Source of the DNA: a virus
Virus record (IMG/VR): IMGVR_UViG_3300035698_012088
Coordinates: 95,413 to 159,412 of that record
DNA length: 64,000 bases
Strand: one strand, 5' to 3'
The notes below the pieces were generated by a model. That model saw only the letters and a list, made by a program, of their open reading frames with translations. It ran no database searches and was not told where the DNA came from. Positions 1-46,026 of this stretch are shown here, in pieces. The position numbers and the translations under genes are program-made. How positions within the stretch are numbered: position 1 is the first letter of the stretch; every line of letters begins with the position of its first letter.

Positions 1-47
1 AAGTGTAAGAGCGTAGTATAAAGAGACTACGGAGAATACGATTTTCG
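1..47 (+). mobile_element. Probable 3' end of an upstream group I intron in the DNA polymerase gene
   Basis: The polymerase frame has a TAG at 14-16. Two small hairpins (CGTAGT/ACTACG and GAGAAT/ATTTTC) end at G47, after which TT-CAA-GGC restores (F)QGLAADGAK. Confidence 0.55.
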
Positions 48-130
48 TTCAAGGCTTAGCAGCTGATGGAGCAAAATACGCCCTATGGTATTTATACTTA
101 GCTGATTATAAGATGGTTAACTTTATCCAT
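48..130 (+). CDS. polA: Family A DNA polymerase, internal exon
   Basis: Translates QGLAADGAKYALWYLYLADYKMVNFIH: the PolA QGxAAD motif followed by the first half of motif C (VNFIH). Confidence 0.85.
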
Positions 131-179
131 AATAGACACGTCTCTTTCTAATGCTATATTAGTATAGGAAGGAGACATC

Positions 180-815
180 ATGTATTCTGTATATATGTAC
201 ACGCACACAAAAAGTAATAAAAAGTATATAGGTCTTACAAAATATACTTTAGAAAAGAGAGCCGGTAAAGAAGGCTGCAACTATAAAGGTTGTCCTAGAT
301 TTTACGATGCCATCCAACAATTTGGCATGTCTGCATTTAAAGCAGAAGTGGTAAAATCAGAACTAACTAGAAAAGAAGCAGCTGATTTAGAGAAAAAGAT
401 GATAAGGAAACTTAAAACCAGAGACCGATCTCTAGGCTATAATCTTCAACCAGGTGGATTTTGTTATCGTAGAACCAAAAGCTCTGAAAGGAGAAGGCGG
501 CAACGAATAAAAACCACCTTGAGGAAACAAAGGTCTAGTTCTAAAGTAAGAAAGACAATGAGTAATAGAATGAAGGATGTATGGAGCGATCCTATTTTTA
601 GAGAAAAACAACTAAATATCCTTCAAACCTCTCCCACAGGAAAACCTAAAAAGAGACTTCAATGCCGCGAAACTGGAGAGGTGTATTCTTCTCAAGCCGA
701 AGCAGCTAAAGTTTGGGGGCTTAGCAAGAGCTATATAAGCCGTTCTTTAAAGGAAAAGGATTTTGTTAGAGTTAACAAGTCCTGTGGAGATTATGTGCAT
801 TTATATAGATACTAA
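180..815 (+). CDS. GIY-YIG homing endonuclease in intron loop L1
   Basis: SVYMY...KKYIGLT, a conserved R and E, GYNL, and a C-terminal NUMOD1-like segment (ETGEVYSSQAEAAK). SD GGAG upstream. Confidence 0.85.
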   Translation: MYSVYMYTHTKSNKKYIGLTKYTLEKRAGKEGCNYKGCPRFYDAIQQFGMSAFKAEVVKSELTRKEAADLEKKMIRKLKTRDRSLGYNLQPGGFCYRRTKSSERRRRQRIKTTLRKQRSSSKVRKTMSNRMKDVWSDPIFREKQLNILQTSPTGKPKKRLQCRETGEVYSSQAEAAKVWGLSKSYISRSLKEKDFVRVNKSCGDYVHLYRY

Positions 816-938
816 ACATTGTGGATGTAAAACAGGGTGAATTGCTGGAAAATCCTAAAGCCTTTTGTACTATAGTGGTTGCACTTTCAAATAGGGTGCA
901 GTACATTATCACTAAGTAACAATCAAAAGGATATTAAA

Positions 939-1355
939 ATGGACAATCAGCAGGCAAGCTCGAACCTAATACCTCTCCCAGGCCTATCTCACTATTATAC
1001 AGATGGAGTCGGGAATATTTACAGTACAAAGAGAGGAGACACCAAAAAATTGAAGACTAGACTACACTATGGAAGAAGTGCTTCGCCCTACATAAGAGTG
1101 AAGGCAGCAGCGAAGAATTATTTACTGCATAGGTTAGTAGCATCTGTCCATCTTAAAAGGCCCCTTGCCAAAGAGGAGAGGGTAAACCACAAAGATGGCG
1201 ATACTGTAAACAACAGTCTGAACAATTTAGAGGTATTGTCTCACAGGGAGAATGTTGCTCATGCCGTGAGAAACAATCTCTACTGCTCCGGTAAAGAATG
1301 GTATAAGGCCAGAGAAGCTTCAACGACTATTCCGCGAGGAAGTACACTCAAGTGA
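939..1355 (+). CDS. HNH homing endonuclease in intron P6 region
   Basis: LHRLVA...VNHKDGDTVNNSLNNLE..HRENVAHA (HNH_3 type). ATG at 939 follows AAGGA. Confidence 0.85.
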   Translation: MDNQQASSNLIPLPGLSHYYTDGVGNIYSTKRGDTKKLKTRLHYGRSASPYIRVKAAAKNYLLHRLVASVHLKRPLAKEERVNHKDGDTVNNSLNNLEVLSHRENVAHAVRNNLYCSGKEWYKAREASTTIPRGSTLK

Positions 1356-1468
1356 GTGGAAGCGCCCTGCCCCTAGTAACTTAGGGTGATGATATAGTCT
1401 GATCTGAATGGAAACATTCAGCAGCTGTAAAGCGAGCAAAGAGCAACGACCTTTGCTGAACATGAATG

Positions 1469-1684
1469 GATGAGATAATAGTAGAGTTGCCTCTAGGAGA
1501 CGAGCTTCAAGCCAATGTCAAAAAAGTGGAAAAATATATGATTCTAGGTATGGAAAAAGTGATTAAACACGTTACAATAAAGGTAGAACCCACACTAATG
1601 ACTAGATGGTACAAAGAAGCTGAACCCGTGTATGATGAGGAGGATAATCTTCTCCTCTGGACACCTAAGATGAAAGAAATGTGA
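1469..1684 (+). CDS. polA: Family A DNA polymerase, last exon
   Basis: DEIIVELP...VTIKVEPTLMTRWYK completes motif C and a typical PolA C-terminus. Confidence 0.85.
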   Translation, partial: DEIIVELPLGDELQANVKKVEKYMILGMEKVIKHVTIKVEPTLMTRWYKEAEPVYDEEDNLLLWTPKMKEM

Positions 1685-30705: not shown

Positions 30706-30993
30706 ATGATTTGGATTATGGCTACCATGGATATCTTTTGGCCAGTTTGTTTAGCAATATATGCAATTGGAGAATTCCTTCTCCTTTGGCATTTTCTAGG
30801 AGATAAAAACTTATCCTGGGATACTAAAGAAGAGATGATGTGGGATTTAGCTACAAGAATAATTTGGCCTATCACCTTAGGAGGGTGGGCAATACATGAC
30901 TGGACAGCCTCATTACACAAGAGAGTATGGGAGTTTAAGCAGACACCTTGGAAGAGTATGAGAGATGCAAAAATCGTAGCAGAAAACCTGTAG
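30706..30993 (+). CDS. Small membrane protein (WP-motif family)
   Basis: Two hydrophobic segments and IWPIT. Confidence 0.6.
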   Translation: MIWIMATMDIFWPVCLAIYAIGEFLLLWHFLGDKNLSWDTKEEMMWDLATRIIWPITLGGWAIHDWTASLHKRVWEFKQTPWKSMRDAKIVAENL

Positions 30994-31937
30994 GAAATAA
31001 CATGACTAAAGAAGAAGCAGAGAAGAACCTTAGATCTCAGTTGAATATGGGATCCTATACAGTGGAAGACGCCTCTGTCTTTACAGAGGGATACATAGCA
31101 GCACTATATGATGCAGAGACTATCACTTGGGAAATACAACAGTATCTCTTGGATACCTTTGGGATATGACTCCAGAAGAAGAATCCCCCTTCCCTTACTC
31201 TGATGACCCTAGCAGAGATTCTTATAAGGGTAAGAAGAAGATAAAAATTACTTCTTACCTAAACCCTAAAGACGATATGGGAGTAGAAGAATACTTAAAT
31301 ATGCTTAACAAAGCCATTGCCTTGGCAGAAGAATCCGGTCTTACAGAGTTAACAATGAGCTGGTGCGGTGAAGATTACAATATAGAACACTCTATAGTTG
31401 GAGTTAGAGAAGAGACTGATGAAGAACAAGCTAAGAGACTTGAGCACACTAAGAGGTATTGGAAGAACAAGTATAAAGGCTATGTGAGAGACACTGCTTT
31501 TTTTGAATCACCTAGAGGGCAGCAGACCATAGCAGCAGTAGTAGCAGAGGAGCTTTAATGGTAACACAAGAAGAGTTGATGGAAATTCTTAAGAAGAGTA
31601 TGAATAAGGAAATAACTAAATTACTTAAAGATACGGATAAGTATATGAGGAAACATGCTAAACAGGGATGCAATTGTACTACCTGGACTTTGGCAAGGGA
31701 TAATATTGTTATGCCTTTTGTAGAGGCCCTTAGACAGACTTACCCAGATCTTGATATTACTATTGGTAAAACACGCCACACATCTGACTGGACAAGACCA
31801 CCCCAATATACTGTAACAATAAGGTGGGCCGAAAAATCTCACATTCTCACCACTGCACAAGCGATGAGGTATGCTGAGAAGGCCACAGCAGCAGCTTTAG
31901 CAGAAGCAGAAGAAGACAAAAAGAAAGAGGACAAGAC

Positions 31938-32303
31938 ATGAAAATAGCAGTTGACATGGATGGCACTTGTGTTAACCATATATTTCCTGAAATGGGGGAG
32001 GATGTACCTCATGCAGCGGAAGTTATGAAGGAATTAGTAGAGGCAGGACATAAGCTTATCTTATATACAATGAGGTCTGGAAAGGAACTAGATGCAGCGG
32101 TGCAGTGGTTCGCAGATAAAGACATTCCTCTATATTCAGTGCAAAAGGACAAGGGCCAGCTTGCCTGGACTAAGAGTAACAAATGCTATGCTAATAAATA
32201 CGTAGATGATAGCGGAATCGGTTGCCCCCTCATAAAAGTAGAAGGATGGGATAGACCCTGTGTAGATTGGGAGGCAGTAAGAGCTGTTCTTCTCAATGAA
32301 TGA
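31938..32303 (+). CDS. HAD-superfamily hydrolase-like protein
   Basis: IAVDMDGT, LILYTMR and YVDD. Confidence 0.75.
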   Translation: MKIAVDMDGTCVNHIFPEMGEDVPHAAEVMKELVEAGHKLILYTMRSGKELDAAVQWFADKDIPLYSVQKDKGQLAWTKSNKCYANKYVDDSGIGCPLIKVEGWDRPCVDWEAVRAVLLNE

Positions 32304-33165
32304 GGGAGAGGAAAGGGTTTACTCTGAAATAATACAGGCAGTGGACGACATGGTCGCCTTGGTCGAGCCAGAGGACTATGTAAACATGAAGGAAATACAG
32401 AATAAGATCTATTATCTAGTAGGTTGCAGCCTGGGGACTACGGCAAACCTTGATATTAAAATAGACGAGCTTAGAGAGAAGTTAAATGCATTTCTAGAGA
32501 TAACTGTAGAGAAGGGAATATCAGATGATGACGAATAAGGGATATGCTTTGTTAACTCTTAAAGAGGCATCAGATATACTACATGCTATTATAGATCACA
32601 ACTGTAAAGCATTCCCTATAAAAGAATTGGATCAGCTTTTAGATGTAGAACATGCTATGGGAATGGCCCAAAGGCAGATAGATTCATTGACAGTAGATAT
32701 TCAGAAATTATCTGAAACCTTACAAGACTTTATAGATGTCAGAGACTAAAATCTATGCGGAGGTGTAGTGGTAGAAGTAAAACAGCTAGAAACAGCAGTG
32801 AATGGGTATACATATCAGATAGAGCCCCTGTTGTTACACTTGGCTATTAATGGAAAAGTGTATGAAGAAAAAGATATAGATCTCTTAGCTAAAGAAATAG
32901 CAGGAGCGTTCTCAAAATTAGATGAGGAAGTAGGATGTCTTCAAGTGACTCTTAACCAAAAAATAGTAGGGCAAGAGGGTACATATCAAATGAAGATGAG
33001 TGGGAATTATGGGGAAAGAAGTGTCCCTGTATCCCCTAGAGGAGTCCAGAATATATGGAAGTATCTATATGGATTAACCCAAATAGAGGACCCCTCTGGA
33101 GTAGTTAAATTTAATGATGGATTAGACCATCAGCAATTACACTTCGATATAACTTTGGAGAGTAT

Positions 33166-33498
33166 ATGAATAAAGCAGTTAAGCATCCAGAACATTACAA
33201 TGAACACCCAAGTATAGAATGTATAGACGTAGCCGAGATCTTTAACTTTAATCTAGGTAATACTGTGAAGTATGTCTGGAGGGCAAGGTTTAAAGGTAAG
33301 AGACTGGAAGACCTTAAGAAGGCCCAGTGGTACTTAAATAGAGAAATAGAGAATATGGAAGCGACCACTAAGTTAAAATGGCAAAGGGTGCAAGATGAGC
33401 AGGACAAAGAGAAAACTACCTCGGAACTATCACAGACATCCCAAGGGCAGAAAGCAGGCCTTGATCCAAGGAGTGAGATCAGGTGCAATACCCCCTAA
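33166..33498 (+). CDS. DUF3310-like protein
   Basis: VKHPEHY...IECID...FNLGNTVKYVWRA..K...EDLKKAQWYL. Confidence 0.8.
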   Translation: MNKAVKHPEHYNEHPSIECIDVAEIFNFNLGNTVKYVWRARFKGKRLEDLKKAQWYLNREIENMEATTKLKWQRVQDEQDKEKTTSELSQTSQGQKAGLDPRSEIRCNTP

Positions 33499-33710
33499 TC
33501 CATATGATGACAAATCCCATAGCAATGAGGTGATATTTGTATATAGTCTAATTGATAGATTAATTAGGAAAGGCTTAACCGATGATGATATAGTACATAA
33601 AATAAATAGAAAGCTAGGCATACCTATGGATAGAGTAGTACAACTAATTATTGATAAGGCAGATATAGCAACCCAAGTAGAAGCAAGAATGAAAGATTGG
33701 GGTTTCCCAT

Positions 33711-34418
33711 ATGAACCTGACTATTAGAAAAGCATTTATAATTGGAGACTCTCATGGGAATTCAACATACCTTGAGAATAGTATAGTGGCAGCACAGAAA
33801 TACGGAGCTGATGCTCTGATACAAGTTGGAGATTTTGGTCATTGGCCAGGACATAACTGTGACGTGACTCGAGATTTTGGATTCCCTATCTACTTTGTAG
33901 AGGGAAACCACGAGGATCATGGACACTTACAGAGCCTCCCCTCTAAGATCAATATCTTAGCTCCCAACCTAACCCACTTAGGTAAGGGAGCTATTATAAC
34001 AATACAAGAAAAGAATATCCTCTGCATTGGAGGAGCATACTCTATAGATAAAGACAATAGGACTCCTGGGTTAGATTGGTTTCCAGAAGAGGAAATGACC
34101 CATGATGAATATAAAGAGATAATGAATTTAGACATAAGAATACACGGCGTCTTATCCCATGATGCTCCTATAGCATTAAACGTAGCCAATACATTTGTAT
34201 ACCAACAAGCAACTAAAAATAGAAATAGGTTACAGAATATAACTGACCACTTTAGACCAGACTTCTGGTTCTTTGGTCACTATCACATGTTATATGAGAA
34301 ATATTGTAGGAAGACAGATACAGCCTACATAGGGCTTCCAGCTGATGTGAATAATCCTAGGCTGGGGTGTCTGTTTGACTTTAAAACTGAAGATATCGCC
34401 TTACACTTCATTGACTGA
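33711..34418 (+). CDS. Calcineurin-like metallophosphoesterase
   Basis: GDSHG, QVGDFG, EGNHE, LSHDAP and FGHYH. Confidence 0.88.
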   Translation: MNLTIRKAFIIGDSHGNSTYLENSIVAAQKYGADALIQVGDFGHWPGHNCDVTRDFGFPIYFVEGNHEDHGHLQSLPSKINILAPNLTHLGKGAIITIQEKNILCIGGAYSIDKDNRTPGLDWFPEEEMTHDEYKEIMNLDIRIHGVLSHDAPIALNVANTFVYQQATKNRNRLQNITDHFRPDFWFFGHYHMLYEKYCRKTDTAYIGLPADVNNPRLGCLFDFKTEDIALHFID

Positions 34419-34917
34419 AAAAAGACAACAAGGAAACTAAAGATGGCACGATTCACAGGAACCGGACAGAAGACAGTAAAGAGAACCAGCAAGCAATTCA
34501 CATTTGAGTATACCCGCCCAGAGGACCTGAGGCGTGAAGGCCGAACCCTTGCCCTTACCGTAGCAGGAAAGCGTGGTGGAAGCACAATGGTCTTGAATGG
34601 ACACGCACTCCGAAGCCTCAAGGCAGTTATGCTGGAAGCTGGAGAAATTTCCTAAGTAGGTTCTCCTGTGCCTATACCCCTTAAGGGGTATAGGCAACAC
34701 CCTAAACAGGAGGAATTAATGTTTCACCTACATGAGACAGCAGAGGAGTGGATTTTAGACCACTCAGAACTCGATGAGCTTATCAGAGAGAGATTCAATA
34801 TACCAGAGGACTGTAATATCAAATATGATATGCAAGACGGTAAAATTGAAGTTACAGCTTGGAGAGCAAACTCTTCTGGTGAGCATATCCGAATAAATCC
34901 AAAGGACATAGACACAA

Positions 34918-44638: not shown

Positions 44639-44704
44639 GGGGATGAAACGGCTTCGATTTACGTCATTGGCGTGAAGACTTGGGTTCGACTCCCAACATC
44701 TCCA
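44639..44704 (+). ncRNA. Minimal tmRNA-like RNA (tRNA-like domain only)
   Basis: GGGGATG/CATCTCC with G3.U70 and A73; stemless D-loop AAACGGCTTCGA; 8-bp helix TTTACGTC/GGCGTGAA; GAC linker; T arm TTGGG-TTCGACT-CCCAA. Confidence 0.8.
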
Positions 44705-46026
44705 AAAATAAAGAAGAGAGGACAATATGAACAAGGTTCACTATGTTAAACCATGGCCTGATATGCATATAGAGGCTTCCAAACTTAATGTCTATATGGC
44801 AGACATAGAAATGAAATCTGTCTGTGGTAAGGTCGTAGCCTTCAAGCAACTAAGAATAGTTGGACACCTTGTTGGACATCAAATCATTGCAGAGATTGAC
44901 AGCACATATAGAAGTCAAAGCAACTGCTATTGGGACACCAATATGGATAATGTAACTTGTGCTACTTGTAATAAACACATAGCAAAGGAAATTTTGAAAG
45001 GAATATAAATGTGTTATAAATGTGAAAAGGATAGACCAAGTGGTTACAACTTTTATGGAAGAGCTTCTAAGATACATTTTATAAATAGAGAGCTATCCGA
45101 GACAAATGACCCTATAGATGTGAAAGGCTGGACCTGTAGTTGTGGATATGAGGCTCTTCGTTGGGAACATAGACACGTTACTGATGATTACTTTAAAGTG
45201 ACTTGTTCTAAGTGTAAAGCAATAATTCCTCATGCATTTTTAGACGACCTAGTAGGAGAATTAAAGGAGAAACATGTGTAAATTATGTATAAGAGATAGG
45301 CCTAAGAAGTTAGGTATGTATGGACGTGCAAATAGGGTGCATCTTATGATAGAGAAAATTCCAAGGGCATTGGTCGATGACGTAGTTTACACTACACAAT
45401 GTGATTGGCAAGCTATAGCCTTTGAACATAGGCATATAACAGAGAATGTATTGGAAGTTACCTGTTCTAAATGTCTAAGTAAGATTGGGGAACTAATACT
45501 AGAGGGAATAGTACCTTCAAGAAAACAGTGCAACGGCTGGAAAAGATATAAGGCTATGAGAAAACCTAAGTGTAACTGCGGAAAGTGTTTAGCCAAATGG
45601 GAAAGAAAACAAAAAAGAAAAAGCATTGCAGAGTCTACTTAACAAAGAGATGGGAAGTCCCAAGTAAAAATAGAGACCACTGGGGTACATATATAAAGAT
45701 AAAGAAGTCTAGGATACTAAAGACCTTTCTCTGTAAGGCTAGAAGATATCCTAAAGGAGACATATTAGAAGAAGATCTCTCTAATGAAGAGGTAACATGT
45801 GCAAAATGTCTGAAGATAATTGTCCAAAGAACAATAGAAAGTCTGTGAGTCATTACTATTGCAGCCCTACTGTAGGTAGTTTTAAGAGGATACATAAAGG
45901 GAGGTTGTGTAAGTATGGCGCGGCATTCATAAAAAGATGGGGGTTTAGGATAACTAATTTAGATTCAGAGGTTATTACCTGTGAAGACTGTAAAAAGAGA
46001 TACTTAAGGTATCTAACAGAGGCACT

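Follow-up and report, generated by a model that had tools for sequence, protein, structure and literature searches.

Mobile group I introns are believed to originate with the settling of a homing endonuclease gene in a ribozyme loop, and how such endonuclease-ribozyme partnerships form, compete and decay has mostly been inferred from single snapshots. The closest described phage systems are the td intron of T4 and the other introns of the T-even phages, which are IA-type group I introns in DNA-metabolism genes, and the DNA polymerase introns of SPO1 and Bastille, which encode the HNH nicking enzymes I-HmuI and I-BasI. Among 45 surveyed Bastillevirinae introns, each has zero or one internal coding sequence, and the apparent exceptions are two adjacent introns or frameshifted open reading frames (ORFs) (PMC11878797). 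Here we analyze a 64,000-nt stretch (the window; G000 95413-159412) of a 159-kb IMG/VR virus record, IMGVR_UViG_3300035698_012088, from an uncultured phage. Its DNA polymerase gene is interrupted by an element, referred to as intron 2, that is very probably one group I intron with two endonuclease genes, one GIY-YIG and one HNH, in two of its peripheral loops at a single codon junction. An earlier note on this DNA had put the usual number of endonucleases in a phage group I intron at zero or one, which agrees with the Bastillevirinae survey, and the literature searched yielded no case of two intact endonuclease genes in a single phage intron.

The window begins inside a family-A DNA polymerase gene, whose exon 1 lies upstream (L003 6718-8401) and encodes the exonuclease and polymerase domains. 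Exon 2 ends in ...AAC TTT ATC CAT, with its last base at position 130, and intron 2 splits motif C precisely between CAT (His) and GAT (Asp). When exon 1, window 48-130 and window 1469-1684 are joined, they form a 1983-nt frame of 660 codons that aligns without gaps over both junctions. Uninterrupted homologues are continuous through ...NFIHDEVI..., and the spliced phage frame aligns with them without a gap at ...NFIH/DEIIVELP.... This in-frame alignment bears out the claim of the earlier note that the intron splits the H and D codons of motif C, and the junction predicted there, ATCCAT-GATGAG (130/1469), matches the one placed here by exon joining. Three other independent assemblies, from different samples, contain the 4.4-kb polymerase region with 100% identity, and the arrangement is therefore not a chimera or an assembly artefact.

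The Rfam group I intron model RF00028 matches the window at 763-1421 with 51.5 bits (gathering score 50) and a 349-nt insertion in P6. Rfam's own placement of P1 is poor; the real P1 is formed by the exon sequence UAUCCAU with GUGGAUG, and its loop is exactly 690 nt long, in keeping with the earlier placement of the GIY-YIG ORF inside P1 and of the guide about 690 nt from the 5' splice site. P10 is formed by CAUU at 817-820 with GAUG of exon 3 at 1469-1472. All of P3, P4, P5, P6/P6a, P7, P7.1, P7.2, P8 and P9 can be placed (Table 1). The P6a loop measures 346 nt, versus 4-5 nt in the relatives. The intron is assigned to the IA type because the P7.1 and P7.2 hairpins, which show compensatory changes, are present between P7 and P3'; P2 is absent.

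Table 1. Features of the DNA polymerase region, in window coordinates
Feature	Position	Strand	Details
Polymerase intron 1, 3' end	1..47	+	Whole intron G000 94402-95459 (L003 8402-9459), 1058 nt; final G at window 47
DNA polymerase exon 2	48..130	+	83 nt; encodes (V)FQGLAADGAKYALWYLYLADYKMVNFIH; tblastn and blastp against uninterrupted homologues
P1 5' strand	124..130	+	Exon UAUCCAU; 7 bp; U130-G821 wobble pair at 5' splice site
Group I intron 2, IA-type, without P2	131..1468	+	1338 nt; last base G1468
Promoter-like site (putative)	133..160	+	TAGACA-16-(TG)TATATT, or TAGACA-16-TGnTATATT; consensus scan, 10/12 matches
Hairpin	140..176	+	Pairs GIY-YIG Shine-Dalgarno GGAGAC with GUCUCU; -18.9 kcal/mol, z -4.65
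GIY-YIG homing endonuclease gene	180..815	+	211 aa, within P1 loop; PF01541; phrog_314
Internal guide sequence	817..827	+	CAUU 817-820, P10 strand; GUGGAUG 821-827, P1 3' strand
P3 5' strand	833..839	+	Pairs with 1363-1369; 4/7 pairs compensatory
P4 and P5 5' strands	843..855	+	P4 843-848 (with 947-952); P5 853-855 (with 941-943)
P5a-c extension	861..930	+	Stem 861-867/924-930, pairing read from sequence; extension length 85 nt
HNH (I-HmuI-like) endonuclease gene	939..1355	+	138 aa; starts in J5a/5-P5', runs via P4', P6 and the P6a loop, stops in P7.2
P6 and P6a 5' strands	954..961	+	P6 954-955/1317-1318; P6a 959-961/1312-1314; P6a loop 346 nt
P7 and enclosed elements	1325..1399	+	P7 1325-1329/1395-1399, enclosing P7.1 1330-1341, P7.2 1345-1358, P3' 1363-1369 and P8 1371-1386
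P9 and 3' end	1404..1468	+	P9 1404-1421, P9.1/9.2 tail, terminal G at 1468
DNA polymerase exon 3	1469..1684	+	Opens GAT GAG at 1469; DEIIVELP...KEM, then stop codon

Relatives of the intron were collected among metagenome polymerases 34-46% identical to that of the phage, and then by a profile search with two GIY-YIG proteins, look-ups and scans. Two of the metagenome polymerase homologues run past ...NF(I/V)H into non-polymerase sequence, and each of their contigs holds an intron at this junction. Counting all relatives, ten contigs have the same ribozyme there: one is ORF-less, nine have GIY-YIG only and none has HNH. The ORF-less intron (contig L004) is 296 nt long, with a P1 loop of 11 nt, a P6a loop of 5 nt and an RF00028 score of 77.8 bits. 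The intron of contig L005 is 932 nt long, with a GIY-YIG ORF in a P1 loop of 716 nt and a P6a loop of 4 nt. In L101/L102, L103/L104, L105, L106, L107, L109 and L111 the GIY-YIG gene also occupies the P1 loop at the same H/D junction, and P6 is short. Same-site homologues scored 77.8, 58.8 and 78.7 bits with RF00028.

Among the ten relatives, the pairing between exon and guide occurs in three fully compensated states (AUCCAU/GUGGAU, GUCCAU/GUGGAC and GUGCAU/GUGCAC); in the five GIY-YIG-bearing introns whose P1 loop was measured, it is kept over a loop of 690-736 nt. In a six-intron alignment of the core, 92.3% of cells are paired and 19 of the 46 pairs are changed on both sides; none of 500 shuffles reached 19 two-sided pairs, and slid controls paired at 31-52%. 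The terminal G is found in all six tabulated introns (that of the phage and those of L004, L005, L101, L103 and L105), and also in L106, L109 and L111 (G before GATGA). As a whole, these patterns argue strongly, if indirectly, for selection on the long-range P1 and on the core, and so imply that the intron would splice.

The last ~27 nt of exon 2 (window 100-130 versus L004 7836-7866) are near-identical in the phage and the ORF-less relative, though their polymerases are only ~43% identical, and the intron-less alleles L006 and L094 have other synonymous codons at the end of exon 2. Either co-conversion during homing or selection for P1 pairing could account for such a flank.

No second intron with both genes was found by tblastn of the HNH protein, nor was any HNH gene seen downstream of GIY-YIG at the 90 loci with GIY-YIG relatives. 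HNH matches lie upstream of GIY-YIG in L179 and L120; those of L179 belong to separate ribozymes, and there is no ribozyme match at that place in L120. With no HNH gene downstream of GIY-YIG at any of the 90 loci and the L179 matches assigned to separate ribozymes, we consider the double state rare. When viral contigs were scanned with polymerase exon 1 as a single protein, no relatives were recovered; an alignment-based scan recovered 80 loci, none with intron 2.

The GIY-YIG protein matches Pfam PF01541 with 25.7 bits (cut-off 22.6) and phrog_314 at 1.1e-19, and its residues Y5, Y16, G18, R27, E71 and N88, which include the catalytic Tyr, Tyr, Arg, Glu and Asn, are invariant across 14 relatives. 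The C-terminal half is conserved among the relatives, and a match of the protein to the I-TevI DNA-binding domain PF20987 falls below threshold (E 0.054, 13.8 bits, cut-off 27). It is 48% identical to the product of the P1-loop ORF of L005, a divergence similar to that of the host polymerases. A PDB sequence search with the protein gave no match at E up to 1, including no significant I-TevI chain. A word-based protein search recovered only the query itself, and the relatives came from the exhaustive profile search.

Upstream of the gene, its Shine-Dalgarno sequence is paired within a hairpin, and the exon-2 reading frame terminates at 149-151, in the 5' arm of that hairpin, seven codons into the intron. 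All seven other lineages examined have an equivalent hairpin, of different sequence, that sequesters the Shine-Dalgarno, with z of -2.6 to -4.3 in six of them. The predicted transcription start of the putative promoter falls within the hairpin. The GIY-YIG ribosome-binding site is thus probably locked and translation held off on the precursor. Release could come from the internal promoter, whose transcripts would begin inside the hairpin; alternatively, ribosomes leaving exon 2 and stopping at 149-151 could open it. ORFs that overlap the core have been reviewed as being tightly controlled (PMC3984707), and the hairpin arrangement appears to resemble the control of ORFs whose expression has to leave the folding of the ribozyme intact (PMC3984707).

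The HNH protein matches Pfam PF13392 (HNH_3) with 30.8 bits (cut-off 24.8) and phrog_959 at 1.4e-24, and its residues 17-111 match PDB entry 1U3E (I-HmuI) at E 6.7e-5; the ORF has no frameshift. Its start codon stands at the edge of P5' and its stop codon within P7.2, so that besides P6/P6a it overlaps P5', P4'/Q, J6/7-P7/R (1320-1329), P7.1 and P7.2. These coordinates confirm what had been claimed from the sequence earlier, namely an HNH ORF in P6 that overlaps Q, R and P7.1/P7.2. The Shine-Dalgarno sequence of the gene, AAAGGA (926-931), is part of the 3' strand of the P5a stem. Since start codon and ribosome-binding site belong to P5 and P5a, both would be hidden when the ribozyme folds. 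The two nuclease genes are the sole GIY-YIG and the sole HNH_3 genes of the 159-kb record, in which no paralogue of either was found elsewhere.

The nearest relatives of the HNH protein lie outside this polymerase clade: one, 61% identical, is encoded by an intron in nrdA of Klebsiella phage KP13-7, and the other, 48-49% identical, by an intron in a DNA polymerase gene of Salmonella phage SSE121. Both ORFs share the ATGGAYAATCAGCAG start, ATGGA(C/T)AATCAGCAG, embedded identically in P5'/P4', which argues that the HNH gene and this ribozyme family are old partners. As judged from these comparisons, the HNH gene follows the ribozyme and the GIY-YIG gene follows the polymerase site. Identity along the ribozyme itself is patchy. 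The P4-P5 segment is 96% identical to KP13-7 versus 79% to L004, the P5'-P4'-P6 segment is 77-79% identical to the HNH introns (77% for KP13-7) versus 62-68% to L004 and L005 (68% for L004), and the P7.1-P7.2-P3' segment is 82% identical to L004 versus 42% to KP13-7. Most likely, recombination with a related HNH-bearing intron brought in the HNH gene along with the P4-P6 domain, on a background that already bore the site-specific GIY-YIG gene; entry of a naked HNH gene into P6 appears less likely than such a domain swap. The earlier note had proposed two independent invasions. Separate histories of the two genes uphold this, the same-site relatives comprising nine with GIY-YIG only and one without an ORF, and the HNH gene occurring in other genes and phages.

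Taken together, the following mechanism is proposed. P1 would arise by pairing of exon UAUCCAU with guide GUGGAUG 690 nt downstream, a U-G pair marking the splice site. With the P3-P9 core folded as usual, guanosine-initiated transesterification would join ATCCAT to GATGAG and so restore the catalytic HDE. GIY-YIG is the long-standing partner of the polymerase insertion site, its closest relatives all being in the P1 loop at the same junction, and HNH is the usual partner of the ribozyme family in other genes and phages. Each enzyme would cut intron-less polymerase alleles of co-infecting relatives, whereupon repair would copy the intron in. We tentatively suggest that the intron is an intermediate of endonuclease turnover, in which a site-faithful GIY-YIG has met a ribozyme-faithful HNH brought by a P4-P6 swap. 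Both would cut the same intron-less allele at different positions, a "double drive" that would resist escape by target-site change, and the two hidden ribosome-binding sites would time expression differently relative to splicing of the essential polymerase. In this complete form the proposal is rather unlikely, and the odds that both enzymes are active are about even.

Several points weigh against the main reading, one splicing ribozyme with two homing endonuclease genes. Splicing and cleavage are activities read from sequence, and the double state is seen in one phage genotype only. The RF00028 score barely clears its threshold (51.5 versus 50), which is due to the two large inserts, and P10 is weak in several relatives. 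The L105 hairpin is non-significant (z -1.3), and the mosaic structure rests on segments of just 19-40 nt. The HNH match covers only I-HmuI residues 11-102, and the C-terminal DNA-binding domain of I-HmuI is lacking; its site specificity is therefore uncertain, and the enzyme could be inactive at the polymerase site.

The alternative that survives best, and for which we would put the chance at somewhat over one in three, is that only GIY-YIG drives homing. HNH would then be a passenger of the P4-P6 swap, either with another target or inactive, and in the course of being lost, and the double state would be short-lived. The lack of HNH in all nine other GIY-YIG-bearing introns at the site fits this account, as do the occurrence of the HNH lineage at other genes and sites and the shortness of the protein, which at 138 aa has no recognisable additional DNA-binding domain. 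This account is, however, at odds with an ORF that is full length relative to its relatives (387 nt in KP13-7 and 402 nt in SSE121, as annotated), with alignments that begin at residue 1, and with an HNH_3 motif that exceeds the Pfam cut-off without a frameshift; nor is decay visible, as the four assemblies are identical.

It is highly improbable that the locus is a twintron or a pair of abutting introns, in which GIY-YIG would have its own ribozyme next to or inside the HNH-bearing intron. Apparent multi-ORF introns of other phages did prove to be two introns, for example in the phiNIT1 polymerase (PMC11878797), and the L179 locus has five ribozyme matches. Here, however, the group I model search that the earlier note had suggested placed a single ribozyme above the gathering score in 131-1468, and no second one was found by RF00028 at E up to 1 within the intron or the region, the sole other match in the whole record being the core of intron 1 (49.9 bits). 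The ORF accounts for 636 (92%) of the 690 nt that make up 131-820, and the 37-nt hairpin fills most of the remainder. In the ORF-less homologue the same P1 is capped by a loop of 11 nt, and the covariation of exon and guide bridges the ORF. Least credible of all is a polymerase truly split into separate polypeptides beside a dead relic of a ribozyme, for although a stop codon follows seven codons into the intron after exon 2 and gene callers annotate the pieces separately, the break would part the catalytic His and Asp of one active-site motif, the core pairs are maintained by compensatory change, and the junction is exactly in frame.

The polymerase gene has a second insertion, intron 1, between exons 1 and 2, in which the ribozyme core comes first and an HNH ORF follows in the P9 region. 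RF00028 matched it with 49.9 bits at G000 94372-94633 and missed it in another Rfam search. Its P1 reads UAUGUGU/GCACAUA where L006 and L076 have UAUCCGU/GCGGAUA, a compensated difference, and its removal restores NYV/FQGLAAD. The exon-1 frame continues past an apparent stop (...TAT GTG T/AA), and homologues of intron 1 are present at the same NY(P/V)/FQG site in L006/L007 and L076. Intron 1 encodes a 260-aa HNH enzyme of another subfamily (PF01844, endonuclease VII-like), and L006, the closest polymerase relative, has intron 1 and lacks intron 2. The earlier suggestion that one of the intron 2 enzymes may serve the neighboring intron is thus not supported, as intron 1 has an HNH enzyme of its own and is kept by relatives without intron 2.

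Other observations concern the polymerase clade and related loci. The polymerase homologues P0014, P0028, P0035 and P0051 stop abruptly at motif-B ...NFG(F/K), which suggests that motif-B may be a third recurrent insertion hot-spot (for an intron or intein) in the clade, unoccupied in the phage. Contig L179 (1-3830), from a metagenome, has five RF00028 matches in ~3.3 kb, interleaved with HNH and GIY-YIG ORFs, and represents an extremely intron-dense gene. In the jumbo phage KP13-7, nrdA (L008, record 30877-34917) apparently has at least two insertions, one with an HNH relative and another with a GIY-YIG relative, both of which are annotated as hypothetical proteins. Elsewhere in the window, at 44639-44707, Rfam reported a 69-nt "tmRNA" (56.3 bits) that comprises the acceptor and T-arm ends only, with the 306-nt body absent, and that was not reported by ARAGORN; it may be a tRNA-like element.

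With intron 2 taken as one ribozyme with two nuclease genes, this junction provides a natural series, namely the ribozyme alone, the ribozyme with GIY-YIG in P1 (in many lineages), and the ribozyme with GIY-YIG and HNH. The series allows direct tests of the splicing cost of a 700-nt insert before the guide, of cooperation versus interference between nucleases, and of the co-exchange of a domain and its ORF. The lineage of polymerase motif-C introns with an endonuclease in P1 under a conserved hairpin that hides the Shine-Dalgarno is widespread and apparently undescribed. There are also consequences for annotation: gene callers split such polymerases, overlook the exon of 83 nt and run the nuclease ORFs on through the ribozyme sequence. 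Many of the GIY-YIG relatives as called have C-terminal tails of the form ...VDVK..ELLE...NQQP..., which are the translated guide, P3, P4 and P4', the ORFs extending through the catalytic core. At L005 7653-8468 the gene caller overlooked GIY-YIG and reported a 181-aa ORF of the opposite strand in its place.

In T4 the ribosome-binding site of I-TevI is held in a hairpin and a promoter-like element lies close by, and the phage GIY-YIG gene shows a parallel arrangement. The two differ in that I-TevI is located in the P6a loop, whereas the phage gene lies in the P1 loop, where it separates the splice site from the guide, and in that the td intron has one ORF. I-TevI cuts at a CNNNG motif about 30 nt upstream, a mode of cleavage that was considered for the phage enzyme and is not claimed for it. 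Both proteins are GIY-YIG enzymes in which the catalytic domain is N-terminal and a C-terminal tail follows, and the phage protein falls in PHROG 314, which is listed as I-TevI-like (PMC11878797). On the HNH side, intron 2 resembles the introns of SPO1, Bastille, SSE121, PhAPEC5 and KP13-7 in having an I-HmuI-like HNH ORF in a phage polymerase or nrdA gene, and those of SSE121 and KP13-7 further in the ribozyme family and in the ORF start embedded in P5'/P4'. All five differ in having the HNH gene only and in being at other insertion sites or in other genes; I-HmuI is also longer, at 174 aa versus 138 aa for the phage protein.

Group I introns with two homing endonuclease genes, or with such a gene in the P1 loop, are described from fungal mitochondria, for example cox1-i3 and cox3-i2 of Hypomyces aurantius (PMC4964425). 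Those introns differ in being organellar and in usually encoding LAGLIDADG or GIY-YIG enzymes; several are twintrons or have decayed ORFs, and they offer no comparable series. In collaborative homing, a free-standing endonuclease gene acts with an ORF-less intron, as F-CphI does with the psbA intron of cyanophage S-PM2 (PMC6083498). The present locus is similar in that a site-targeting endonuclease becomes associated with an intron, the GIY-YIG lineage being tied to the site and not to one ribozyme lineage. It differs from S-PM2 psbA and F-CphI in that the phage has its nuclease gene within the intron already, in the P1 loop, along with a second one.

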